DNA of 64,000 nt from Pseudomonadota bacterium. Its GTDB lineage: Bacteria; Pseudomonadota; Gammaproteobacteria; Steroidobacterales; Woeseiaceae. The notes below the pieces were generated by a model that worked only from the letters and a program-made list of their open reading frames with translations, did no database searches and had not been told where the DNA came from. The stretch lies in assembly GCA_038747355.1 (NCBI GenBank), contig JBCDJX010000005.1, positions 5,380 to 69,379 on the forward strand. Reading direction: 5' to 3'. The first letter of the stretch is position 1. The number at the start of each line of letters is the position of its first letter. Made by a program: the position numbers and the translations under genes. Below, in pieces: positions 13,924 to 59,979 of the stretch.

Positions 13924-14889
13924 TCAGTCGTTGCTTTCGACTCCGGCAAGCGTGGCGTCGAGCATTTCCACCAGCTCATCGCGGGTGTAGCTGTGCGGCC
14001 CCCACTGGTTCAGCTGCACGAGCTCGTTGATTTTCGTGCCGATCGTCCAGCCCTGTTCCTCGGCGTTCGGCACCACCATGTAGCGGCGCAGCGGTTTGTC
14101 GTCGAACAGCGCGTGTACGAAGGCCTCCGACACCTCGTCCGGCTCCTTGTACGAGAGCTCGCGCTCCGCGGTCTGTTGGTAGGCCTGCTGCATTTCGTCG
14201 GTGATCTCGTTGCCCGCCGCGCGTGCCATATCGAACTCGCGGGCCATGCTGCTGCGCCGGATGTTTGACTTGTAGTTGCCGGGCTCAACAACCGCTACCC
14301 AGACACCGTGCGGCTGCATCTCGGCGCCGAGGCTGTCGGTGAACGCCTCGATCCAGTGTTTGCTGCCGGCGTAGGCGCTGAAGCCCGGGAAAGCCGCCAG
14401 TGTGCCGGCGATCGAGCCGGTGGTGATGATGCGGCCCTTGGATTCCATGATCAGCGGGGCAAACGCTCGCGTCACCCGGTACACGCCTTCGACGTTGACG
14501 TCGTATACGAAGGTCTGGTCTTCGATAGCCGTATCCAGGACCTCGCCGCCGCCACCAACGCCGGCGTTGTTGACCAGCCCCCAAAGCCCGGTGCCTTTTT
14601 CGCGCAGCATGTCGACGGCGGCGTCGATTTCGTCCTGTTTGGTGACGTCGAGCTTGACGGCCGTGACGTTTTCGATGGCGTCGAGTGCGTCCAGGTCCTT
14701 TTGTTTACGGGCGCCGGCGTACACGTGGTAGCCGCTGCCGGCCAGCGTCTCGGTCAGGTTGCGACCGATTCCGGTGCTGGCGCCGGTGACCAGGATGGAT
14801 TTTTTCTCACCGTGGTCGTGAGCATGGACCGGGGGCATTGCGAAGATAAGGCAGGCAAGAGCAAGCAGGCAGGTCAGGTAGTGCTTCAT
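13924..14889 (-). CDS. Short-chain dehydrogenase/reductase (SDR) with an N-terminal signal-peptide-like or anchor segment
   Basis: It has the TGASTGIG cofactor-binding motif and YAGSK (YxxxK catalytic motif). The N-terminus is MKHYLTCLLALACLIFAMPPVHA. Confidence 0.88.
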   Translation of the reverse strand: MKHYLTCLLALACLIFAMPPVHAHDHGEKKSILVTGASTGIGRNLTETLAGSGYHVYAGARKQKDLDALDAIENVTAVKLDVTKQDEIDAAVDMLREKGTGLWGLVNNAGVGGGGEVLDTAIEDQTFVYDVNVEGVYRVTRAFAPLIMESKGRIITTGSIAGTLAAFPGFSAYAGSKHWIEAFTDSLGAEMQPHGVWVAVVEPGNYKSNIRRSSMAREFDMARAAGNEITDEMQQAYQQTAERELSYKEPDEVSEAFVHALFDDKPLRRYMVVPNAEEQGWTIGTKINELVQLNQWGPHSYTRDELVEMLDATLAGVESND

Positions 14890-25346: not shown

Positions 25347-25922
25347 TCAGTCGTCGTCGCGATCCAATCGTGCCGGTGTCGTGCGCTGGAGTGGCTCAAC
25401 CTGGCCACGCAATTCGCCCGCCGGAAACGCAAATGTGTGCAGGTTCCAGTAGATCTGACCGTCGTCGATTGCCTGCGCGAGCTCATGCAGGTTACGTATC
25501 GACCGACCGATCGCACCTGCGCAGGCGTCAGCACCGGGGAATTGCGAATTGAACAGCTTGCCCGTGATCGTGTTGGCATCCAGTGTAATCGTCTCGCTGT
25601 TGTCATTGGCGGCACCCACCAGATCAACAGCGCCAATCGCGATCGGGCCGTTGGCGCCGGCCACGTTGCAATGCAGGTGCAGGCGAGAGACATCACCTTC
25701 GAGGTTCGAGAAGGTGACTCGAATCGTCGCGCGGGTGAAACGACGATTGATGCTGATAATGGCGAGCGCTTTGCCGGCGGACACGACCGCTTCAGTCTGA
25801 ACTTCCTGGTCCGCCGTCAGGACCGTTTTGGATTCATAGCGGAAACGTTGCTTGTCGGCTTCAGCCGTCGCGGCAATGGTCAGTGCGAGTACGCTCAGGG
25901 TAGTAACTACCAGGGTTTTCAT
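25347..25922 (-). CDS. Secreted CHRD-domain protein
   Basis: It has the signal peptide MKTLVVTTLSVLALTIAATAEA. The CHRD hallmarks are LHLHCNVAGANGPIAI and YWNLHTFAFPAGELRGQV. Confidence 0.85.
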   Translation of the reverse strand: MKTLVVTTLSVLALTIAATAEADKQRFRYESKTVLTADQEVQTEAVVSAGKALAIISINRRFTRATIRVTFSNLEGDVSRLHLHCNVAGANGPIAIGAVDLVGAANDNSETITLDANTITGKLFNSQFPGADACAGAIGRSIRNLHELAQAIDDGQIYWNLHTFAFPAGELRGQVEPLQRTTPARLDRDDD

Positions 25923-25979: not shown

Positions 25980-26010
25980 CGTTAACACCGCTTATTCGGA
26001 TCAAGGTTCA
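25980..26010 (-). promoter_or_regulatory. Putative ECF-sigma-dependent promoter of the CHRD gene
   Basis: The minus strand reads TGAACC-TTGATCCGAATAAGCGG-TGTTAACG, ending 57 nt upstream of the ATG at 25922. The same -35 element, spacing and -10 element occur at 27830-27860 and 27916-27946. Confidence 0.55.
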
Positions 26011-26041
26011 ACGCCAGCGGACAATTCGCGGAAAAAAGCAC

Positions 26042-26070
26042 AAAAAAACCGGGCCACGGGTGTGGCCCGG
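26042..26070 (-). terminator. Rho-independent terminator after the repeat-lipoprotein gene
   Basis: On the minus strand, CCGGGCCAC, loop ACCC and GTGGCCCGG (26070-26049) are followed by TTTTTTT (26048-26042). Confidence 0.8.
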
Positions 26071-26087
26071 CCTTCCCTTACGCCCGG

Positions 26088-27776
26088 TTAATAGCCGCTG
26101 CCCTGAGACGCTTGCTGCGTTTCCGTCGGGCTGACGGTAAACCAGGTGCCGTAAACGCCGTTGACGTCGTCCGGACTCTGGTCGCCGGAAAAGAAGTACA
26201 GCGGGTCGCCCTGGTAGGTCCACTGGCGAGAGCCATCTTCGCGGTCGATGATGCCGAAGTCGCCGCTCGCCCTGTCCGCGTCGTTCGCGTACAGCGGCGG
26301 CCAGGTCACCGCGCAACCGCCGTTGCAGTCTGAATCGCCAGCACCGTCGCCGTCTGCGTCGTTGCGATCGTCATCAAAGCGATACAGCGTGAAGCCCGTT
26401 TTCAGTGACACGGTATCTGCACGTTCGCCGTTGCCGTCGATATCGGCGATAGACCCGCGCGCTTCGAAGATGTCGCCTTCATTGGCGTCGGCAATCACCT
26501 GGACCGGCGTCCGGCGTGCGAGGTGCCAGACCGTTCCGACCTGGTCGCCGTTCACGTCGCCTGCAGCGATGTCGCTGGCGAAGAAGTACATGGGCTCCCC
26601 GTCGATCGCCCACTGTCGTGCGCCGTCGTCGCGGTCGATGAGTGTGTAACGACCGAATTCCGTGGCGCCGGCATCGGCAAACAGTGGCGGCCAGGTCTGC
26701 GCACAACCGCCGTTGCAGTCCGAATCACCAACGCCGTCACCGTTCGCATCGTTAACGTCATTGTCGAACACGTACAGCGAGAAGCCTTCGAGTTCAGCGC
26801 GCTCGAAAGTCGGCGCGCCGTTTGCGTCCAGACCACGTACCGAAGTGGCGGCAACCACGATCGGGCCGAGCGCTGAGTCACCGATCTCGAACGGCGCAGG
26901 ACGCGCGACGTACCAGACGTTACCGGCGCCTTCGCCGTCGGTATCCCCAGGTGCCTGGTCCGGTGCAAAGAAATACAGCGGCAGACCGTTCAGCGCCCAC
27001 TGCCGCGTGCCATCGTCACGAGTGACGATCGTGAACGGGCCACCCTCGGTCGCGCCTGCGTCTGCAAACAGCGGCGGCCAGGTTTCTGCACAGCCGGCAT
27101 TGCAGTCGGAATCGCCCGCGCCATCGCCGTCGGCGTCGTTGCGATCGTTCTCGAAGGTGTACAGCGTGAAGCCTTCCCGGTCGTCGCGCGTGTCGACGAT
27201 GCCGCCGCTGCCGTCCAGTCCGCGAACCGAACCGCGACCAACAAACACCGTGCCTGTTGCGCTGGCGTCTACGTCGCCGCGCATCCAGGGGTCGGGACGT
27301 GCGACATACCAGACGCCGCCGACGCCCTCGCCGTTGATCTCGCCGGCGTTTGCGTCGCCGGCAAAGGTATACAGTGGCAGGCCCTTGAAAGCCCACTGCC
27401 GCGACGTGCCGTCGTCACGCGCGATAATGGAGAACGCACCGGTCGCTTCGGAGCTGTCGTCAGCCAGCAGCGGTGGCCAGTTGTCGGCGCAGCCGGCGTT
27501 GCAATCCGAATCGCCAGCCCCGTCGCCGTCGGTGTCGTTACGATCGTCTTCAAAGGTGTACAGCGTGAAGCCGTCCGCTTCCTTGGCGAAGACCTCTCCG
27601 ATGTCTGTCACGCTGGTCGCGCCCGGGGCCGCAGCCTGCGCAGCGTTCACCGCCGCGGGTGGCTCAGGGGTTTGCAGGGGTTCCAGCGGCGCGGGGTCGT
27701 CCGCGCTTGAGCTGCAGCCAACCAGTACGGCCAGGGCCGACGCGGCAAGCAGGTTCTTCAGTGTTGTGGTGTTCAT
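26088..27776 (-). CDS. Lipoprotein with four tandem COG4315 / 'Lipoprotein_15'-type repeats, each carrying an acidic Ca-binding-like insert
   Basis: The start is at the ATG at 27776: MNTTTLKNLLAASALAVLVGC contains the lipobox LVGC. The unit F(T/S)LY.F.(D/N)D.ND.(D/N)GDG.GDSDCN.GCA..WPPL....G.(F/Y).(I/L)I.R.DG.RQW...G.P(L/M)Y.F occurs four times. Confidence 0.88.
   Translation of the reverse strand: MNTTTLKNLLAASALAVLVGCSSSADDPAPLEPLQTPEPPAAVNAAQAAAPGATSVTDIGEVFAKEADGFTLYTFEDDRNDTDGDGAGDSDCNAGCADNWPPLLADDSSEATGAFSIIARDDGTSRQWAFKGLPLYTFAGDANAGEINGEGVGGVWYVARPDPWMRGDVDASATGTVFVGRGSVRGLDGSGGIVDTRDDREGFTLYTFENDRNDADGDGAGDSDCNAGCAETWPPLFADAGATEGGPFTIVTRDDGTRQWALNGLPLYFFAPDQAPGDTDGEGAGNVWYVARPAPFEIGDSALGPIVVAATSVRGLDANGAPTFERAELEGFSLYVFDNDVNDANGDGVGDSDCNGGCAQTWPPLFADAGATEFGRYTLIDRDDGARQWAIDGEPMYFFASDIAAGDVNGDQVGTVWHLARRTPVQVIADANEGDIFEARGSIADIDGNGERADTVSLKTGFTLYRFDDDRNDADGDGAGDSDCNGGCAVTWPPLYANDADRASGDFGIIDREDGSRQWTYQGDPLYFFSGDQSPDDVNGVYGTWFTVSPTETQQASQGSGY
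26130..27608 (-). repeat. Four in-frame tandem coding repeats, period about 385-400 nt (about 130 aa)
   Basis: Conserved cores recur on the plus strand near 26296, 26695, 27080 and 27480, e.g. ...ccgccgttgcagtc(t/c)gaatc(g/a)cc... ...tacagcg(t/a)gaagcc. Confidence 0.85.
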
Positions 27777-27829
27777 GTTTAGCGTCCTGTTGGAGTGATC
27801 GGGCGGCACCGCGAGGTGCCAGTTCAGCT

Positions 27830-27860
27830 CGTTAACCCCTGAGAAGCGCGCAAAGGTTCA
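27830..27860 (-). promoter_or_regulatory. Putative ECF-sigma-dependent promoter of the repeat-lipoprotein gene
   Basis: The minus strand reads TGAACC-TTTGCGCGCTTCTCAGG-GGTTAACG, ending 53 nt upstream of the ATG at 27776. It faces away from the sigma-gene promoter, which lies 56 nt away. Confidence 0.55.
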
Positions 27861-27915
27861 ATCAGGCAGCGACAGTTACACTCGGATACGACTGGCGACT
27901 TTTTTCGCAATCGTT

Positions 27916-27946
27916 TGAACCTTTTGCGTCGCTTGTGGTGTGAACG
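27916..27946 (+). promoter_or_regulatory. Putative autoregulated ECF promoter of the sigma / anti-sigma / S8 operon
   Basis: The plus strand reads TGAACC-TTTTGCGTCGCTTGTGG-TGTGAACG. The -10-like element overlaps the GTG at 27940, so the ATG at 27973 (SD GGAAG 5 nt upstream) is the more likely start. Confidence 0.55.
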
Positions 27947-27972: not shown

Positions 27973-28563
27973 ATGGCGGCCCGAACGCTTATCCGCTCAG
28001 CCACCAGCTACGGCATGACCAGGACATCGACCGACGATGATGATCGCGCGCTGATCGGCCGCATCGCCTCACAGCGCGATGCGGGCGCCTTCGAGCGCCT
28101 CTACGACAGCTACCGGCGTCGCCTCGGCCCGTTCATGTTTCGCTTTGTGCGCGACACGGCGGCAAACGAGGAAGCCTTCAACGACATCATGCTGACCGTG
28201 TGGCGTAAGGCCTCGAGCTACAACGGCCGCTCCCGGGTGTCGACGTGGATTTTCGGAATTGCCTACCGTCAGTGCCTGAAAACCCTGCGCCAGCTGAATC
28301 GTGAGCCGGGCGGTGACGACAGCGTGGAAGTCGCTGTCGATGAGACGCGGTCGCTCGAACGGCAGGACCTGGTTGAGCGAGCGCTGGAGGGCTTGTCGGT
28401 GGAGCACCGACTGGTTATCGAGCTGTCGTACTTCGCCGGTCACAGTTATCAGGAAATCGCGGCCATCGCAGACTGCCCGGAGAACACGGTCAAGACCCGC
28501 GTGTTCCACGCGCGCAAACGCCTGAAGGCGATAATGAATGAACTGGGTGAGCAACCCTCGTAG
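27973..28563 (+). CDS. ECF-type RNA polymerase sigma factor
   Basis: Region 2 reads AFERLYDSYRRRLGPFMFRFVRDTAANEEAFNDIMLTVWRKASSY. The region-4 HTH is LSYFAGHSYQEIAAIADCPENTVKTRVFHARKRLK. The start is uncertain: GTG 27940, ATG 27973 or ATG 28015. Confidence 0.9.
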   Translation: MAARTLIRSATSYGMTRTSTDDDDRALIGRIASQRDAGAFERLYDSYRRRLGPFMFRFVRDTAANEEAFNDIMLTVWRKASSYNGRSRVSTWIFGIAYRQCLKTLRQLNREPGGDDSVEVAVDETRSLERQDLVERALEGLSVEHRLVIELSYFAGHSYQEIAAIADCPENTVKTRVFHARKRLKAIMNELGEQPS

Positions 28564-28583: not shown

Positions 28584-29222
28584 ATGAACAAGGTGACTGA
28601 GCTGGCAACGCGCGAAGAGATCGATGACGATCTGCGCATCGTCGACTACGTGGCAGGCAAATTGTCCGGCGCAGAGCGTGCGGATTTTGAGCACCGCCTT
28701 GATTCGGATGCCATGCTCCGCGCGGCGGTCGACGAGGAGCGCGAACTGCGCGCCTTATTGACGACGCCCAGCGACGGCGACGTGCCTTCCTCTGCCGGGT
28801 TTGAACAACTGCGCGAGGAGGTTGAGATGGATGCGACGCGGAGGTTCTGGCGCAGTCCGGCACTGGCGGCCGGTGTTGCCGCGATGGCTCTGATCGCTTT
28901 GTTCACGCTGCAGCAGCCCGACGATGTTGCGCTTCCAATCACGCCAGAGGAGACGCCGCCGCCGTCGTTTACCGCGTTGTCGGAATCGCCGACGCCGCCG
29001 TCCGACCAGAATCGGGTCACGATTGTATTCGCTCCCGGTGTCACGACAGCGGAGCGGGCGGTCATCGCGTCACAGCTCGGCTTTGAACTGGTCGGCGGAC
29101 CGAACGCAGCCGGTGCCTGGACCGCTGTCACCACGCCGGGTGTTAACCGCGATGATCTGTCTCGCTGGCTTGCCGATCCACGCATCGACCTCGCCGAGCC
29201 GCAACGTTACGAGACTCCCTGA
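28584..29222 (+). CDS. Single-pass anti-sigma factor (zinc-less ASD) with a periplasmic I9-propeptide-like domain
   Basis: It immediately follows the sigma gene and has a GGAGA SD. The N-terminal anti-sigma domain reads LRIVDYVAGKLSGAERADFEHRLDSDAMLRAAVDEERELRALL, and the TM segment is ALAAGVAAMALIALFTL. After a Pro-rich linker comes RVTIVFAPGVTTAERAVIASQLGFELVGGPNAAGAWTAVTTPGVNRDDLSRWLADPRIDLAEPQ. Confidence 0.8.
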   Translation: MNKVTELATREEIDDDLRIVDYVAGKLSGAERADFEHRLDSDAMLRAAVDEERELRALLTTPSDGDVPSSAGFEQLREEVEMDATRRFWRSPALAAGVAAMALIALFTLQQPDDVALPITPEETPPPSFTALSESPTPPSDQNRVTIVFAPGVTTAERAVIASQLGFELVGGPNAAGAWTAVTTPGVNRDDLSRWLADPRIDLAEPQRYETP

Positions 29223-30436
29223 TGCGACTGTTATTGATTCTGTTGCTGGTCGCTGCCGCGATGCCCGAATCGGCCTGTGCCGACGAGTCGGCGGTCGGCG
29301 AATGGGTCATTGTGATGACAGACTCGCGGCCGGAGCGCCGGCGAGGCTGGTCCAGTGGCGTTGGCTACACCGGGACCTACAGTTATGCCGATGATCCTGA
29401 GCTGAAACGGCTGGCAAGACGACTTGCGCGAGATTTTCCGGTCACGGTGACGCGGCAGTGGCCGATCCGCTCGCTGTCGGTTCACTGCGTTGTCGTTCGA
29501 ATCGATCGCGATGCTGAGGCCACGCTTGCGGCGTTGCGCAGCGACAAGCGGGTCGAATGGGTGCAGCCGCTCAATGAGTTCCAGGGCTTGTCTCAGCAAC
29601 AGGACCCGTACCGGCACCTGCAGGCGTCGCTGGACACGCTGAACGTGGCGCCCCTGCACAACGAGTTTTCCGGACAGGGCATTCGAATTGTGATGGTGGA
29701 CTCCGGCGTGGAAGCGGACCATCCGGACATACAGCATGCGCTCGCTGACGTGATCGACTTTGTCGGGCAGCCGGCGGGCGGCGAGCGCCACGGCACCGGC
29801 GTCGCCGGCGTCATGGTGGCTCACGGTGCTAACGGCCAGGGCATCAGCGGTGTTGCTCCCGGTGCCGAGCTCTACGCGTACCGCGGTTGCTGGGAAGCGG
29901 ATGATGGCATCACACGTTGTAACAGTCTCACCTTGTCGCTGGCGCTGGATCACGCCATCGACAAACAGCCGCACGTGGTGAACCTGAGCCTGACCGGTCC
30001 AAGCGACCCCTTACTGGACCGTCTTGTTGCGCGTTTGCTGGAACAAGGCGCCGTTGTTGTGACGGCGCACGACAAACAGCGAGGGGAGCAACGATTCCCG
30101 TCACCGGCGGAAGGTGTTTTGGTCGTTCATGACGGATCCAGGGTGACGACGGATGCGCTGGGCGGTTTCTATGCGCCCGGACAGGCCGTGCTCACGGCCC
30201 AGCCGGGCCACGCCTACGATTTTATGGCGGGTTCGTCGCTGGCTGCCGCACACGTATCGGGTGTTTTGGCCTTGCTGCTGGAAGCACATCCATCGCGCGC
30301 AAGGTCCGATTCCGGCGCGGCGTTGCTCGCCAGTCTTCGTTCATCACCCGGAGGTTGGAGTATCGACGCCTGCCTGGCGTTGCATTTTCTCGACAGTCGC
30401 GTTCACTGCGACGCGGTCAACGCAGTCGGTAACTGA
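29222..30436 (+). CDS. Secreted S8 family (subtilisin-like) serine protease with N-terminal I9-like propeptide
   Basis: Its ATG overlaps the anti-sigma stop (TGATG), and it has the signal peptide MRLLLILLLVAAAMPESACA. The catalytic motifs are VMVDSGV (Asp), HGTGVAGVMVA (His), VVNLSLTG (Asn) and AGSSLAAAHVSGVLALL (Ser). Confidence 0.9.
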   Translation: MRLLLILLLVAAAMPESACADESAVGEWVIVMTDSRPERRRGWSSGVGYTGTYSYADDPELKRLARRLARDFPVTVTRQWPIRSLSVHCVVVRIDRDAEATLAALRSDKRVEWVQPLNEFQGLSQQQDPYRHLQASLDTLNVAPLHNEFSGQGIRIVMVDSGVEADHPDIQHALADVIDFVGQPAGGERHGTGVAGVMVAHGANGQGISGVAPGAELYAYRGCWEADDGITRCNSLTLSLALDHAIDKQPHVVNLSLTGPSDPLLDRLVARLLEQGAVVVTAHDKQRGEQRFPSPAEGVLVVHDGSRVTTDALGGFYAPGQAVLTAQPGHAYDFMAGSSLAAAHVSGVLALLLEAHPSRARSDSGAALLASLRSSPGGWSIDACLALHFLDSRVHCDAVNAVGN

Positions 30437-31112
30437 CGCGCAGCGCTACGGCGTCTTTGTCGACCGCGAAGATGCGCGTTGAGTCGTCGTCCACCGTGTT
30501 CCAGGTCAGCGACAGGTCATAACGACCTACGCTCAATCCGCCGCCCACTTCAAACCAGCCGATCATCTCATCGATCTCGCCGCCCACTCGACCGATCCCG
30601 GCCGAGGCGAGCAGATAGCCGCGGTCACTCACCGGCGGGCGGAAGGTCACGCCCGAATTCACCGCCGAAGCGCGGCCATAGTAGTCGGGTGCATAAGCCA
30701 GCATCAGGCCCAGCGACCGACTGACATGCCAGTCCGCACGAAATTCGTAATAGCTCCAGTCACTGACATCAATAAACTCGGCGCGCGACACGGACAGCTC
30801 CAGCGCCCTGTCCTCGCCGAGGGATCGGAAGTAGCCGAGGTGAGCATTCAGGTTGCGAGTCAACGAAAACCCCGCCGGCTGGCCGTCGGCATAGTAGCCG
30901 CCACCGCCGACGAACCAGCCTGAGGCAAAGTCATAGCCGCCACTCACACCAAACGCGGCATGACCATTGCTGATATTGGCGCCGCGATGTACGACTTCGG
31001 AAAACGCATGCAGCTCCAGCGATTCCCCTGCACGGGCAGTCGCTGCGAGAAACAGCAAGCTCAGCGCGGCGGCTCGCACTAGAAGTAGTCTGGCTCGTTG
31101 CCGGCAATCCAC
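30417..31112 (-). CDS. Outer-membrane beta-barrel protein (TIGR02001-like 'proteobacterial OM protein'; family tentative)
   Basis: It has the signal peptide ...LLLVRAAALSLLFLAATARA and Gly/Tyr-rich strands (GVSGGYDFASGWFVGGGGYYADG). The start is either ATG 31112 or GTG 31079; the latter overlaps the upstream gene stop by 1 nt. The 3' end overlaps the convergent S8 gene by 20 nt. Confidence 0.7.
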   Translation of the reverse strand: MDCRQRARLLLVRAAALSLLFLAATARAGESLELHAFSEVVHRGANISNGHAAFGVSGGYDFASGWFVGGGGYYADGQPAGFSLTRNLNAHLGYFRSLGEDRALELSVSRAEFIDVSDWSYYEFRADWHVSRSLGLMLAYAPDYYGRASAVNSGVTFRPPVSDRGYLLASAGIGRVGGEIDEMIGWFEVGGGLSVGRYDLSLTWNTVDDDSTRIFAVDKDAVALRVSYRLR

Positions 31113-31648
31113 TTGATATTGCAGCCGATGCTCGGCTTCTGATCCGGCGTCGGCGCATGGCCTGCCAACACGGCATCCAGTGCTGCTCGTACATCGCTGC
31201 CGTTCACCGGCAGGCCATTCGACGGGCGACTGTCATCGAGCTGTCCGCGGTAGGCGAGTTTCAATCGGTCGTCGAACACGTAGAAGTCGGGTGTGCACGC
31301 CGCTTTGTACGCCTTCGCAACGGACTGGTCTTCGTCAACGAGGTACGGAAAGGAGTACCCCAGGCGCAGCGCCTCCTCACGCATAAGGTCCGGTGCGTCG
31401 GCCGGGTAGTTAACGATGTCATTGCTGCTGACAGCAAAGATTGCAACGCCCTTCGGGGCGTAGTCTGTTCCGATCCTGGCGAGCTCTTCGCCGACGTGCT
31501 TCACGAACGGGCAGTGGTTACAGATAAACATCACCAGCGTCGCCGGCGCGCCCGCAGCCAGCTGGTAAATGTTGCCGTCCGGGTCGGGCAGCGAGAACGG
31601 GGGCGCGGGCGTACCCAGCGGAAGCATTTCGGATTCTACGGCGGCCAT
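31079..31648 (-). CDS. Thioredoxin-fold protein (peroxiredoxin-like, PRX_like1 type)
   Basis: The motifs LVMFICNHCPFVKH and PFSLPDPDGNIY, and the length, fit the AhpC/TSA-like 'thioredoxin family protein' group. Confidence 0.82.
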   Translation of the reverse strand: MAAVESEMLPLGTPAPPFSLPDPDGNIYQLAAGAPATLVMFICNHCPFVKHVGEELARIGTDYAPKGVAIFAVSSNDIVNYPADAPDLMREEALRLGYSFPYLVDEDQSVAKAYKAACTPDFYVFDDRLKLAYRGQLDDSRPSNGLPVNGSDVRAALDAVLAGHAPTPDQKPSIGCNIKWIAGNEPDYF

Positions 31649-31924: not shown

Positions 31925-32437
31925 ATGCCTAACAGAACCAAGCAGATCGGTGTTCGCCTCACCGACCAGGAAGCGGAATTTCTCGCAACACTGAAGGTGG
32001 AGAATGCCGTGACGCCCAGCGACAAGCTGCGCGCCATCATTGACGAGGCCCGTCAGCGACACCGGGGCACCGAAGACTACGCGGGCTCTTTGAAGCTGGT
32101 GCAGGACCTTGTCGCGCCGTCAGCACGCATCGTGCGACAGAGCGAGAACGAACAGCGCATGCATTCGGAGCTGGTGACGCGGCTCGAGGAGTGGGCGCCG
32201 GAGTGCATGGCGTATCTGCTGGCGTCAAACGGCAGAAATACCGCGCTGGACAAAAAACAGCTGGTCGAGATCGAAGCGGCCATCGTGCAACGGGTCATCG
32301 TCTTGATGACTTCGGTGTTGCAGTTGGCCGTAACTCGCACAGCCCCGTTGTACGACGGGCGTGCGCTCGACAAGTCGATCGAGCCGGTGCTGGAACTGGC
32401 CCGCGTCATCGACACCGTGCGCAAACAGAATAACTAG
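31925..32437 (+). CDS. Hypothetical protein with N-terminal ribbon-helix-helix-like motif, first gene of the pspA operon
   Basis: KQIGVRLTDQEAEFLATLKVENAVTPSDKLRAIIDEARQ fits the RHH strand-helix-helix pattern. A helical domain of about 120 aa with no motif I recognise follows. The stop lies 13 nt before the pspA ATG. Confidence 0.7.
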   Translation: MPNRTKQIGVRLTDQEAEFLATLKVENAVTPSDKLRAIIDEARQRHRGTEDYAGSLKLVQDLVAPSARIVRQSENEQRMHSELVTRLEEWAPECMAYLLASNGRNTALDKKQLVEIEAAIVQRVIVLMTSVLQLAVTRTAPLYDGRALDKSIEPVLELARVIDTVRKQNN

Positions 32438-32450
32438 GAGGAGGAGAACA

Positions 32451-33119
32451 ATGGCAGAAACAATGGCAAGACGAGTTAGTCGGCTGATCAGTGGCGGGTT
32501 CAACGCCGTGGTCGATGCCGTCGAGGGCGCCAGCCCGGAGACCGTTATGGAGGAGGCTATCCGTGAGGTCGATAGCGCTATCGACGAAGTGCGCGCTGAG
32601 CTGGGCGAAGTGATCGCCGGTACGCATCACGCGAGCAAGCGGCTGGCGGACGAAACCAACAAGCACACCGAACTTGGCAAGAAAGTGGAGCTCGCTGTGA
32701 CGGAAGGTCGAGACGACCTGGCGGAATCGGCGATCGCTCACCAGATGGACATCGAGGCAAAGATCCCGGTGCTGGAAGCCGCGATTGAGGACGGCAAGGC
32801 GAATGAGGCCGAGCTGGAAAAATACATCGCCGCGCTGAAGGCCCGCCGTCGTGAGATGGAAGAGGAGCTTGTGACCTTCCGTTCAGCCAAGTCGGAATCT
32901 CCGGCGATGAGTAACGGCGCAACTGGCGGATCGTCGGTTGACGGCAAGGTTGACAAGGCGACCGATGCATTCGACCGTGTTATGAACCGCGCGACCGGTG
33001 TGCCCGGCATGTCGACGCCGGAAGACCGCAAGAGCGCTAAAGACCTGGCGGAGCTGGATGAGCTGGCAAGAAAGTCGGCGATTGCAGAGCGCCTCGCCAA
33101 ACTCAAAGGTGACAGCTAA
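32451..33119 (+). CDS. pspA: PspA/IM30 (ESCRT-III-like) family protein
   Basis: The ATG at 32451 is preceded by AGGAGGAGGAG. The N-terminal amphipathic helix ARRVSRLISGGFNAVVDAVEGASPE is followed by long coiled coils typical of PspA/Vipp1. The upstream part of the ORF-track entry (32361) overlaps the preceding gene. Confidence 0.88.
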   Translation: MAETMARRVSRLISGGFNAVVDAVEGASPETVMEEAIREVDSAIDEVRAELGEVIAGTHHASKRLADETNKHTELGKKVELAVTEGRDDLAESAIAHQMDIEAKIPVLEAAIEDGKANEAELEKYIAALKARRREMEEELVTFRSAKSESPAMSNGATGGSSVDGKVDKATDAFDRVMNRATGVPGMSTPEDRKSAKDLAELDELARKSAIAERLAKLKGDS

Positions 33120-33121
33120 CG

Positions 33122-33781
33122 ATGATTGATCTCCTGACATCAGGCAACAACGCACCGTTCACGGTTGCACTACTCGTCATGTTCGCGATTGCGATTGCCG
33201 AGGGTGCGGCCCTGGTGCTGGGTGCCGGCTTGTCGGAAACGCTGGATGCGATGCTACCGGACATGGATGTCGATTTCGGCATTGAAGGTACCGGAGGCTC
33301 GGTCTTCACCAAGCTGCTTGGGTGGCTGCATGTCGGCAAGGTGCCGATCCTGATGATCCTGATCGTGTTCCTGACGGCATTTGGCCTGATCGGCCTTGTC
33401 ATGCAGTCCATGGTCAAGGGCGTCACCGGCTTTTACCTGCCGGCCTGGTTCGCCTCGGCGCCCGCCCTGTTCCTGTCGCTGCCCGTGGTTCGGGTTGGAG
33501 CAGGGGCGCTGTCGATGATCATGCCAAGCGATGAGACTGAAGCCGTGTCATCGAACACCTTTATCGGTCGTACCGCGGTCATCACGCTGGGAGAGGCGAA
33601 AGCCGGGTCTCCGGCCGAGGCCAAGGTCGTCGATGAGCACGGTTACTCACACTACATCATGGTTGAGCCTGATTCGGCAGATGTGAGTTTTTCGCAGGGC
33701 AGCAGCGTGCTGTTAACAGAAAACCTGGGCGCCGTTTTCCGCGGCATTGTCAGCGACAGCCCGGGACTGAGGGAGGAATAA
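33122..33781 (+). CDS. yqiJ: YqiJ-family inner-membrane protein (NfeD-like C-terminal OB domain)
   Basis: Its architecture and motifs parallel E. coli YqiJ as I recall it. The N-terminal TM is FTVALLVMFAIAIAEGAALVLG, and the middle TMs are GKVPILMILIVFLTAFGLIGLV. The C-terminal soluble domain is FIGRTAVITLGEAKAGSPAEAKVVDEHGYSHYIMVEP. It lies directly upstream of a flotillin gene. Confidence 0.8.
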   Translation: MIDLLTSGNNAPFTVALLVMFAIAIAEGAALVLGAGLSETLDAMLPDMDVDFGIEGTGGSVFTKLLGWLHVGKVPILMILIVFLTAFGLIGLVMQSMVKGVTGFYLPAWFASAPALFLSLPVVRVGAGALSMIMPSDETEAVSSNTFIGRTAVITLGEAKAGSPAEAKVVDEHGYSHYIMVEPDSADVSFSQGSSVLLTENLGAVFRGIVSDSPGLREE

Positions 33782-35524
33782 ATGAACAGAGATAGTCTTT
33801 TGGGAGGAGCAGGCATGGACATAATGCAAATCGGTGTCATCACCATTGTTGTCCTGGTTGCGATGATCGCGCTCGGGCTGATTTTGTCACGCCTGTACCA
33901 CCGCGCCTCGAAGGAAGTGTCGTTCGTCAGGACGGGTTTCCGCGGGCAGACGGTCATTATCAATGGCGGCGCCATGGTGCTGCCGGTGCTGCACGAGATC
34001 ATTCCGGTCAACATGAACACCCTGCGGCTGGAGGTGAAGCGTTCCAACGAACAGGCCCTGATTACCCGCGACCGCATGCGTGTCGACGTAACGGCCGAGT
34101 TCTACGTGCGTGCCAAGCCGACCGAGGAGGCGATCGCCGCCGCTGCGCAGACGCTGGGTCTGAAGACCATGCATCCGGAGCAGCTGAAGCAACTGGTCGA
34201 GGGTAAGTTCGTTGACGCCCTGCGTGCGGTTGCCGCCGAGATGGCGATGGAAGAGCTGCACGAGAAGCGTGTCGACTTCGTACAGAAAGTGCAGCAAGTG
34301 GTGTCTGAAGACCTGCTCAAGAACGGTCTCGAGCTTGAGTCCGTGTCATTGACCGGTCTTGACCAGACGGGCTTTGAGCACTTCAATCCGCAAAACGCGT
34401 TCGACGCCGAGGGTCTGACGAAGCTGACCGAAGCCATCGAGTCACGTCGCAAGAAGCGCAACGATATCGAGCAGGATACCGCGGTCCAGATCCAGACCAA
34501 GAACCTGGAAGCGGAGCGGGAAAAACTCGAGATCGGCCGGGAAGAAGAGTACGCAAGGCTCGCCCAGCAGCGCGAAATCGAGATTCGCAGGGCGTCGCAG
34601 GCCGCGGCCATTGCCGCCGAGCAGGCAGAGAAGCTGCGCGAGTCCGAGGAAGCCAAGATCACCTCGCAGCGCGAGGTGGACATGGCCAGCATTCTTGCTG
34701 AGCGTTCCGTTGAGGAAGAGCGCATCGAAAAAGAGCGCTTGCTGAAGGAGCGTGAGGTCGAAAAGGCCAAGTCGGTTGAACTCGCCGAGCAGGAACGTGC
34801 GATTGCGGTTGCCGAGAAATCCAAGGAAGAGTCAATCGCCCAGGCTGAAGCTGACAAGGCACGTGCGCTTGCCGTTAAGGAAGAGGAGCTGGTTCGCACG
34901 GTACGCCAGGTTGAAACGGCAGAACGTGAGAAGCAGGTAGAGCTGGTACAGGCTCGCCAGGCGGCTGAGAAGGATGCGATCTCGATTACGGTCGCAGCCG
35001 ATGCCGAGAAGCAGGCTGCCGAGGACAAGGCCGTCGCCGTGCAGACGCTGGCGGAAGCCGAGGCCTCGAAAGATCGTATCGAAGCCAAGGGTGCATCGGA
35101 TGCCGAAATGCTGCGTGCGGCCGCTGCGGCGAAGACCTACGAGGTCAACGCAGAGGGCGAGCGCGCGCTCAACGAGGCGGCCAACCTGCTGTCGGAGGAG
35201 ATCATCAATATGAAGATCCGCCTCGAGATGCTCGAGAAACTGCCGGCAATCATCGCTGAGAGTGCGAAGCCGATGCAGCAGATCGACGACATCAAGATCA
35301 TCCAGGTCGATGGTCTGAACGGCGCACCGGTCGGATCCAACGGCGAAGCCGTCGCCCATCAGGGCAGCATGGCAGACCAGCTGGTTTCGAGCGCGCTGAA
35401 GTACCGGGCACAGGCACCGCTGGTTGATTCAATACTCGACGAGATCGGTATGGACGGCAGCGACCTCAACGGCCTGACGGCCGGGCTGACCGGAAACGGC
35501 GCTGCCAAGCCCAAGTCCGAGTAA
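33782..35524 (+). CDS. yqiK: Flotillin-like SPFH/Band-7 protein (YqiK type)
   Basis: The junction reads TAAATG with a GGGAGGA SD. An N-terminal TM segment is followed by the SPFH core (FVRTGFRGQTVIINGGAMVLPVLHEIIPVNMNTLRLEV). A very long Glu/Ala/Lys-rich coiled coil and a flotillin C-terminal region complete the protein. Confidence 0.9.
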   Translation: MNRDSLLGGAGMDIMQIGVITIVVLVAMIALGLILSRLYHRASKEVSFVRTGFRGQTVIINGGAMVLPVLHEIIPVNMNTLRLEVKRSNEQALITRDRMRVDVTAEFYVRAKPTEEAIAAAAQTLGLKTMHPEQLKQLVEGKFVDALRAVAAEMAMEELHEKRVDFVQKVQQVVSEDLLKNGLELESVSLTGLDQTGFEHFNPQNAFDAEGLTKLTEAIESRRKKRNDIEQDTAVQIQTKNLEAEREKLEIGREEEYARLAQQREIEIRRASQAAAIAAEQAEKLRESEEAKITSQREVDMASILAERSVEEERIEKERLLKEREVEKAKSVELAEQERAIAVAEKSKEESIAQAEADKARALAVKEEELVRTVRQVETAEREKQVELVQARQAAEKDAISITVAADAEKQAAEDKAVAVQTLAEAEASKDRIEAKGASDAEMLRAAAAAKTYEVNAEGERALNEAANLLSEEIINMKIRLEMLEKLPAIIAESAKPMQQIDDIKIIQVDGLNGAPVGSNGEAVAHQGSMADQLVSSALKYRAQAPLVDSILDEIGMDGSDLNGLTAGLTGNGAAKPKSE

Positions 35525-59903: not shown

Positions 59904-59979
59904 TGGTGGCCAGGGGCGGAATCGAACCACCGACACGCGGATTTTCAATCCGCTGCTCTACCAACTGAGCTACCTGGCC
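59904..59979 (-). tRNA. tRNA-Phe (anticodon GAA)
   Basis: The reverse complement is GGCCAGGTAGCTCAGTTGGTAGAGCAGCGGATTGAAAATCCGCGTGTCGGTGGTTCGATTCCGCCCCTGGCCACCA. The 7-bp acceptor stem is GGCCAGG/CCTGGCC and the D arm is GCTC/GAGC. The anticodon stem GCGGA/TCCGC carries the loop TTGAAAA. The T arm ends in TTCGATT, and CCA is encoded. Confidence 0.95.

Follow-up and report, generated by a model that had tools for sequence, protein, structure and literature searches.

The 64-kb stretch of contig JBCDJX010000005.1 that was analysed here (the window), from a bacterium of the Woeseiaceae, carries a gene for an extracytoplasmic function (ECF) sigma factor that is followed by genes for a putative membrane-bound anti-sigma factor and a secreted subtilase of family S8, and is preceded by oppositely oriented genes for a lipoprotein and a CHRD protein. 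Among the chief means that bacteria have of sensing the state of their envelope are ECF sigma factors; to our knowledge, neither the trigger nor the regulon is known for most of the ECF phylogenetic groups. A prediction made from the sequence of the window (the original prediction) had proposed that three copies of one promoter motif join these genes into a local regulon. The features concerned are as follows (positions in the window; lengths in amino acids, aa, or nucleotides, nt):

25347-25922, minus strand: gene for a secreted CHRD protein of 191 aa, a predicted target (PF07452, 66.1 bits against a cut-off of 24.1)
25980-26010, minus strand: predicted ECF-type promoter of the CHRD gene, TGAACC-N17-TGTTAACG, with the ATG 57 nt beyond its end
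26088-27776, minus strand: gene for the lipoprotein, a predicted target (PF03640, 234.8 bits against a cut-off of 24.4)
27830-27860, minus strand: predicted divergent ECF-type promoter of the lipoprotein gene, TGAACC-N17-GGTTAACG, with the ATG 53 nt beyond its end
27916-27946, plus strand: predicted autoregulatory ECF-type promoter of the sigma operon, TGAACC-N17-TGTGAACG, with the sigma ATG 26 nt beyond its end
27973-28563, plus strand: gene for the ECF (group 4) sigma factor, 196 aa (PF04542, 42.4 bits; PF08281, 53.5 bits; PF07638, 27.8 bits)
28584-29222, plus strand: gene for the putative single-pass anti-sigma factor, 212 aa, starting 21 nt after the sigma stop codon
29010-29201, plus strand: periplasmic subtilase-prodomain-like domain of the anti-sigma factor (I9 / fervidolysin N-pro type), residues 143-206
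29222-30436, plus strand: gene for the secreted S8 subtilase, 404 aa (PF00082, 85.9 bits), its start overlapping the anti-sigma stop codon

Matches to Pfam and NCBIfam models bear out the gene assignments of the original prediction. The sigma factor has sigma2 and sigma4 domains only, in about 200 aa and with neither sigma3 nor sigma1, as ECF sigma factors do (TIGR02937, 84.1 bits against a cut-off of 42.9), and falls under the cut-offs of all NCBIfam equivalogs, the best subfamily being PRK12515 (125.8 bits against 236). Its start was placed at the ATG at 27973 in preference to a GTG at 27940 that falls within the promoter's -10 block, and the N-terminus aligns with those of the orthologues; the closest ECF sigma factors of solved structure are distant (2q1z, E 3e-16; SigK, 4nqw; sigmaE, 1or7). 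The lipoprotein has a lipobox (LVGC, residues 18-21) and four repeats of about 130 aa composed of PF03640 units, each with two Yx[FWY]xxD motifs (eight in total); its score against NF040526 (SCO0930_lipo), 266.7 bits, is under the cut-off of 275, so it is not a member of that equivalog. Each repeat also holds an Asp-rich loop, DxNDxDGDGxGDSDCNxGC, followed by WPPL (residues 79-96, 212-229, 341-358 and 471-488), which by eye is like the calcium-binding loops of thrombospondin type 3 repeats and lies outside the description of PF03640 as checked. A sequence search of solved structures returned no relatives of the lipoprotein or of the CHRD protein.

Relatives of the locus came from two sources: a search of a 5.8-billion-protein collection with the anti-sigma factor, which gave only eight close relatives (contigs L001-L010), and a scan of species-representative genomes with an alignment of the sigma factor, which gave at least 545 relatives, the best 80 being kept (L011-L090). 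The nearest named relatives of the sigma factor are in metagenome-assembled genomes of Woeseiaceae (69-72% identity). The lipoprotein gene is divergent from the genes for sigma factor, anti-sigma factor and S8 subtilase in L001-L007 and L011-L016.

The motif TGAACCTT-N15-KGTKAACG, searched for as TGAACCTTNNNNNNNNNNNNNNNKGTKAACG, occurs three times and no more in the 64-kb window, at the positions and on the strands originally given for the three elements, and none in 100 dinucleotide-preserving shuffles. All three are intergenic and point towards a start codon 26-57 nt downstream; allowing up to three mismatches adds a single site, at 14315, which is unrelated. Common to the three sites is a GG at motif positions 22-23 that the original prediction had left out of its list. 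When a position weight matrix was built from sigma-gene promoters in nine other lineages, with the window excluded, the same sites ranked first to third in the window: sigma (38.8 bits), CHRD (22.0 bits) and lipoprotein (18.7 bits). The fourth-best score on both strands (128 kb) is 4.8 bits; as had been expected, the motif is not found inside genes. The highest score per 64 kb in each of 200 Markov shuffles averaged 9.4 bits (95th percentile 14.6, highest 19.4), and the CHRD site exceeds all 200 of these maxima.

Orthologous loci were expected to carry the motif, and in L001, L004-L008 and L011-L017 it does precede the sigma, lipoprotein and CHRD genes; orthologous sites of the lipoprotein gene are those of L001, L004, L005, L006, L007, L011, L012, L013 and L015, and the orthologous CHRD site in L001 reads TGAACCTG-N15-GGCGTTCAC. 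In the near relatives TGAACC is invariant or has one base changed, the -10 block is kept, and the spacer is free in sequence and 17 nt long (18 nt in one case). Across 23 orthologous sites, T1, G2, A3, A4, C5, G23 and A29 are invariant and C6, T8, T9, T26 and C30 nearly so, with 1.5-2.0 bits per position in both blocks and 0.1-0.7 bits in the spacer. Two conserved blocks at a fixed distance, separated by a free spacer, form the pattern expected of a promoter. The consensus as originally written is exact within the window and proved too narrow across the 23 sites; the working core proposed here is a -35 element TGAACC(tTT), 17 nt, and a -10 element G-nn-T-nn-AC (kGTkAAC in the window).

The link between the motif and the adjacent sigma factor comes from the wider family. 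In most of the 80 relatives examined, among them Thermoanaerobaculia (Acidobacteriota), Duganella and Pseudoduganella (Betaproteobacteria), Arenicella and Wenzhouxiangellaceae, the sigma gene is closely preceded by TGAACC, about 17 nt and a -10 block, in keeping with the proposal that the promoter of the sigma gene itself defines the motif; the family that carries it spans Gammaproteobacteria, Oxalobacteraceae and Acidobacteriota. About 25 distant loci have a back-to-back divergent copy, like that of the window. The -10 block differs from clade to clade (TGTGAAC in the window, TATTCAC in Duganella, GACATAC in Thermoanaerobaculia, CTCCTAC in L025). CHRD proteins are encoded at varying positions near family members (L013, L014, L017, L020, L025, L029, L042, L062 and L067), and CHRD genes at other positions carry the motif with a -10 block matching that of the local sigma gene (L013, L017, L020, L025), as the proposal that targets follow the sigma factor would have it. 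In L013/L014 and L017 the CHRD gene lies elsewhere in the locus, after a gene for a Gcw_chp-type protein (described below), and is preceded by TGAACC-N17-TATTCAC, the version of the local sigma promoter. The promoter pairs are TATTCACG (sigma) and TATTCACC (CHRD) in L013, CTCCTACC (sigma) and CTCCTACG (a CHRD-fusion gene about 4 kb away) in L025, and CTCGTACG (sigma) and CTCTTAGG (target) in L020; in L029 and L042 the motif precedes a CHRD-fusion gene directly upstream of the sigma gene.

An unbiased count compared 318 further TGAACC sites in 59 loci with the -10 region of each locus's own sigma promoter: 22 of the 318 have at most three mismatches in ten positions, against 5.9 expected from unrelated sigma promoters, and 12 have at most two, against 1.6 expected. 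This count replaced a permutation test of the same covariation that was partly circular, some distant sites having been picked by similarity. A laxer search of the relatives (TGAAC[CTG], spacers of 16-18 nt, at most two mismatches in seven) found 52 sites against about 40 expected with a shuffled -10 block; that number is uninformative, and the sites served only as leads. On the strength of the conservation and covariation it is highly probable that the three sites of the window are promoters read by the adjacent sigma factor, one of them autoregulatory and two belonging to target genes, and at the level of sequence the original interpretation is supported, those of its predictions that could be checked in silico having all turned out as expected.

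The distant copies of the motif point at genes for secreted proteins. These include copper proteins of the plastocyanin/azurin type (L068, with L081 borderline), a triple-CHRD protein (L067) and small lipoproteins with a conserved Cys-His motif (L035, L074 and L086). The genes of these lipoproteins (L035 2276, L086 6718 and L074 6480, all on the minus strand) are divergent, and their products share F-x-P-x-C-x4-C-H ... RMP ... WI..GA, by eye like planctomycete cytochrome-c-type domains, with no match in a Pfam search. Two other motif-preceded targets (L025, 10445-11626, minus strand; L029, 5701-6921, plus strand) are secreted proteins of about 400 aa with a C-terminal CHRD domain, the N-terminal 250 aa or so having no Pfam match and a by-eye likeness to spondin_N.

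The lipoprotein and CHRD genes of the window are, as judged from the sequence between them, separate transcription units. Because the following structure separates it from the lipoprotein gene, the CHRD gene needs a promoter of its own:

26042-26077, minus strand: terminator-like hairpin of 16 pairs followed by TTTTTTT, between the lipoprotein and CHRD genes

The hairpin is kept in L001, and the CHRD promoter lies just downstream of it. The only match in a sigma-70 promoter scan (25949-25921, minus strand) overlaps the CHRD start codon and so cannot serve this gene. The 55 bp between the divergent -35 boxes of the sigma and lipoprotein promoters (27861-27915) hold ACAGTTACAcTCGGaTACGA, conserved in near relatives, and a run of six to seven T flanked by GCGA/TCGC; this stretch is not conserved in L006, L008 and L012, and could be a shared UP-like element or the binding site of a second regulator. 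The 5' leader of the lipoprotein gene (27774-27829, minus strand) holds a small GC-rich hairpin, GGCACC-TCGC-GGTGCC, some 10 nt past the -10 block, and a hairpin of different sequence stands at the same position in seven of eight lineages. RNAalifold gave no consensus structure for these leaders, which are not alignable, and no single hairpin reaches significance (z mostly -0.9 to -2.0, one +0.6). Rfam, at its gathering threshold, has one match in the window, a tRNA (59907-59979, minus strand).

The product of the second gene of the operon has the marks of a class I anti-sigma factor: an N-terminal helical sigma-binding domain, one transmembrane helix, and a gene directly after that of the sigma factor. 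In its AlphaFold2 model there are helices at residues 10-23, 29-41 and 43-60 (predicted local distance difference test, pLDDT, above 88) and at residues 95-109, the last of which is read as the transmembrane segment. The N-terminal domain matches RslA in Foldseek (3hug_B, probability 0.97, 30% identity), and the protein matches NF052375 with E 6.3e-8 (32.9 bits, under the cut-off of 100); an HxxxCxxC zinc motif is absent from it. As the full-length model has a pLDDT of 67 and yields weak Foldseek E-values, the periplasmic domain was then modelled alone.

This domain, of about 65 residues, has the order beta-alpha-beta-beta-alpha-beta and is conserved throughout the family. The AlphaFold model of residues 143-206 (pLDDT 86, predicted template modelling score 0.72) was compared by Foldseek with the PDB, where its top ten matches are all prosegments of subtilisin BPN'/E or prodomains of the convertase PC1/3 (probability 1.00, template modelling (TM) scores 0.65-0.71, root-mean-square deviation (rmsd) 2.2-3.7 A), the best being 3cnq_P (E 7e-4, TM 0.65-0.69, rmsd 2.6 A); the Tk-subtilisin propeptide and the I9 inhibitor POIA1 follow below these ten. 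In Pfam, 13 of 25 relatives of the anti-sigma factor match PF22148, the fervidolysin N-terminal prodomain, with a best E of 6.6e-8. When the family profile was searched against the sequences of the PDB, the best match was the prodomain of a secreted serine proteinase (8c4z_A, E 0.004), in an alignment that rests on ...LarLRxDPRVayxE, and hhalign aligned the domain with the prodomains of the partner S8 proteins at 93.7% probability (E 1.8e-7, 55 columns). Since four independent tests (fold, Pfam, profile against PDB sequences, and profile against profile) agree, the periplasmic domain is, by alignment and by model, a subtilase prodomain homologous to that of the partner protease itself, a relationship that came to light only through profiles of the family and the predicted structure. 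Near-subfamily anti-sigma factors end three to five residues after an invariant Tyr209 (AEP-x-x-Y209), and in the S8 prodomain the residue four places beyond the equivalent QP is almost always Phe; to judge from the alignments, these may be equivalent P1 residues for cleavage or product-like binding. The AEP-x-x-Y209 feature is not conserved in distant members of the family.

The S8 protein has a signal peptide, an N-terminal prodomain of its own and an intact Asp-His-Ser triad, aligned to D32, H64 and S221 of subtilisin BPN' and conserved in 76, 76 and 75 of 76 relatives, respectively; this conservation supports an active protease. The oxyanion hole is less regular: in the column under N155 of BPN' (S8 residues around 275-285) Asn occurs in 1 of the 76, and in the preceding column, under G154, Asp occurs in 53 and Asn in five, in the context ...vvA-x-D..., the alignment of this loop being uncertain in both columns. 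Prohormone convertase 2 likewise has Asp at its oxyanion-hole position.

The three genes form a conserved unit. An S8 gene lies downstream of the sigma gene and an open reading frame of 200-250 aa in 76 of the best 80 loci, and the anti-sigma family comprises 2118 clusters at 50% identity (E <= 1e-3), mostly full length. The hosts of the sigma relatives are Gammaproteobacteria, Betaproteobacteria and Acidobacteriota. Carriers include the cultured bacteria Duganella sp. Root336D2, Pseudoduganella ginsengisoli KCTC 42409 and Ideonella azotifigens JCM 15503. A fourth conserved gene belongs to this core:

30417-31112, minus strand: gene for a Gcw_chp-type secreted protein of 231 aa, convergent with the S8 gene and overlapping its 3' end by 20 nt

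Relatives of this protein match PF09694, a family of unknown function (99.7 and 51.7 bits), and the copy in the window has no Pfam match; read by eye, it is a probable outer-membrane beta-barrel. By tblastn its relatives adjoin the S8 gene in L001-L020, L028, L060, L074 and L083, and in the Duganella loci the Gcw_chp-type gene directly follows the S8 gene on the same strand. In the window no copy of the ECF motif lies upstream of it. The module is found well beyond this locus, in a large family defined by its partners (the S8 protease, the prodomain-like domain of the anti-sigma factor and the Gcw_chp-type protein), none of which the original prediction had recognised as such.

These observations suggest how the module may work. 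At rest, the single-pass anti-sigma factor would tether the sigma factor to the inner membrane. Being a copy of a subtilase prodomain, the periplasmic domain of the anti-sigma factor would be expected to bind the co-encoded S8 protease tightly and to serve as its substrate, and we infer that the protease acts on the anti-sigma factor, and in this direction: the mature subtilase would bind the prodomain-like domain, much as a subtilase binds its own prodomain after cleavage, and then degrade it (the site-1 cut), exposing the anti-sigma factor to intramembrane proteolysis and releasing the sigma factor. The freed sigma factor would transcribe its own operon (sigma factor, anti-sigma factor and S8 protease), in positive autoregulation, together with two single-gene units, those of the four-repeat PF03640 lipoprotein and the secreted CHRD protein, with transcription starts predicted a few nucleotides downstream of each element. 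A bolder reading, with a probability of roughly 40%, is that the locus represents a widespread and uncharacterised ECF class in which the sensor of the anti-sigma factor is a detached subtilase prodomain, the co-encoded S8 protease is its cognate partner, degradation of this decoy frees the sigma factor, and CHRD, PF03640 and cupredoxin proteins are the outputs.

Several observations weigh against the proposed explanation of the promoters and the switch. The anti-sigma domain of the window, taken alone, has no Pfam match at E <= 10, and BLASTP finds no direct similarity between its C-terminal domain and the S8 protein (E 2.6). The S8 protein keeps its own prodomain, which bears on the protease step; the copy on the anti-sigma factor is for this reason unneeded for folding. 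As to the promoters, the lipoprotein site scores slightly under the highest null maximum, a paralogous ECF sigma factor elsewhere in the genome might cross-read the sites, and the nearest orthologous loci are moderately diverged, so that the conservation of the motif could be partly inherited and not selected; the data from the deep family argue against mere inheritance.

The strongest alternative, though a somewhat unlikely one, accepts the sites as genuine promoters of this sigma factor and denies the S8 protease the role of activator: the prodomain-like domain would be a membrane-tethered inhibitor or docking site, by which the protease is kept inactive or localised, or the bound protease would shield the anti-sigma factor from another site-1 protease (compare RseB and RseA). 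Subtilase prodomains do bind and inhibit their cognate enzymes tightly, POIA1 and prodomain-enzyme complexes are among the Foldseek matches, the S8 protein already has a prodomain, and the end of the near-subfamily anti-sigma factor, three residues past Tyr209, resembles the product-like C-terminus of a prodomain. Prodomains are, however, normally degraded by the enzyme that they inhibit, so that inhibition and cleavage are compatible, and the locus holds no other conserved candidate for a site-1 protease. It is improbable that the S8 and Gcw_chp-type proteins are mere co-transcribed outputs and the prodomain-like fold a generic one with no functional link to the protease. The ferredoxin-like fold is indeed common (further down, the Foldseek lists include RRM, HMA and ACT domains) and the Foldseek E-values are modest even at best, but subtilase and convertase prodomains fill the whole of the top ten, about half of the relatives examined match the fervidolysin model, the profiles of the domain and of the partner's own prodomain align with one another, and the gene pair is kept together across phyla. 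That the element is the binding site of another protein, a dispersed intergenic repeat or a promoter for an unlinked ECF sigma factor is very improbable, for although TGAACC and GGTTAAC are partly self-complementary, GTTAAC is a palindrome and the divergent -35 boxes of the Duganella type, only 34 bp apart, form an inverted repeat, the distance between divergent copies varies (55 bp in the window, about 26 bp in L013, 34 bp in Duganella) as it would not in a single dimer site, each copy keeps its 17-nt two-block architecture and its orientation to a gene, the -10 block changes with the promoter of the local sigma gene, and the 64 kb hold no further copies.

Two sets of neighbouring genes may be mentioned. 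A gene for an AhpC/TSA-redoxin (31079-31648, minus strand) immediately precedes the Gcw_chp-like gene, with an overlap, in a layout shared with L001; because they overlap, the two genes probably form one operon. A few kb downstream of the module is a PspA/IM30 - YqiJ - flotillin/SPFH cluster of the membrane-stress type (32361-35524, plus strand), syntenic in L001, with no ECF motif upstream of it. The recurrence of CHRD and cupredoxin (plastocyanin/azurin-type) proteins among the targets and the adjacent AhpC/redoxin gene offer a weak and speculative lead to the inducer, namely copper or redox stress in the envelope.

The regulon itself is of an ordinary kind, an autoregulated ECF sigma factor with two local targets, if unusually clean and with good comparative support; it places bacterial CHRD proteins and PF03640/COG4315 lipoproteins in a regulatory context for the first time. 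The feature that looks new is the pairing of a prodomain-bearing anti-sigma factor with an S8 protease, which suggests an undescribed way of switching on an ECF sigma factor. We know of no documented mode of ECF sigma activation in which a protease acts on a prodomain decoy. The open-access literature yielded no paper tying an ECF sigma factor to CHRD or PF03640 proteins and none on an anti-sigma factor with a protease prodomain, which is weak evidence in either case. A group of more than 500 members may well be numbered already in ECF classification 2.0, the main text of which makes no mention of subtilases. If the proposed mechanism is true, S8 would be a new family of site-1 proteases in regulated anti-sigma proteolysis, and the protease-prodomain decoy a new sensing principle, by which the cell gauges the activation state of a periplasmic protease. 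The pairing of sensor and protease gives a concrete and testable mechanism of activation, and the cultured carriers make experiments feasible.

Like sigmaE-RseA (with DegS and RseP), sigmaW-RsiW (with PrsW) and sigmaV-RsiV (with signal peptidase), the module has a two-domain sigma factor of sigma2 and sigma4 (PMC4183432, PMC8999054). It shares with the canonical ECF modules a co-transcribed membrane anti-sigma factor with an N-terminal sigma-binding domain, a small regulon of envelope proteins, and an autoregulated promoter with an AAC-containing -35 element at a fixed spacing (within the 16-18 nt of the class). It differs from them in that the partner protease is an S8 subtilase, the known site-1 proteases being S1 (DegS), PrsW, S41 (Prc/CtpA) and signal peptidase, and in that the sensor domain is itself a protease prodomain. 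A subtilase gene conserved beside an ECF sigma gene, with proteolytic control proposed, also characterises ECF54, a mainly actinobacterial group whose genomic context includes carboxypeptidase, subtilase and CHAT proteins and which is described as having no anti-sigma factor, the protease being proposed to act on the sigma factor itself (PMC8999054). ECF54 was rejected as the home group of the present sigma factor, given the anti-sigma gene between the sigma and S8 genes here and hosts that are Proteobacteria and Acidobacteriota.

The periplasmic domain of the anti-sigma factor resembles subtilase prodomains and I9 inhibitors in its beta-alpha-beta-beta-alpha-beta fold (TM 0.65-0.69 and rmsd 2.6 A to 3cnq_P and 1spb_P) and in its C-terminal motif ...L(R)xDPrVxxaEP.... 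Unlike the prodomains of subtilases, it is not fused to a protease, but forms the extracytoplasmic end of a transmembrane anti-sigma factor encoded by a separate upstream gene. In the clostridial Csp germination subtilases (CspB, CspA and CspC) a retained prodomain is part of a signalling device. The S8 protein matches the NCBIfam models CspBA and CspC weakly (E 3.5e-4 or weaker, far under the cut-offs), a negligible similarity. The present module would resemble the Csp system in using the interaction between a subtilase and a prodomain for signalling and not for bulk proteolysis, and would differ from it in output, which is activation of a cortex hydrolase there, with no anti-sigma factor involved, and release of a sigma factor here.

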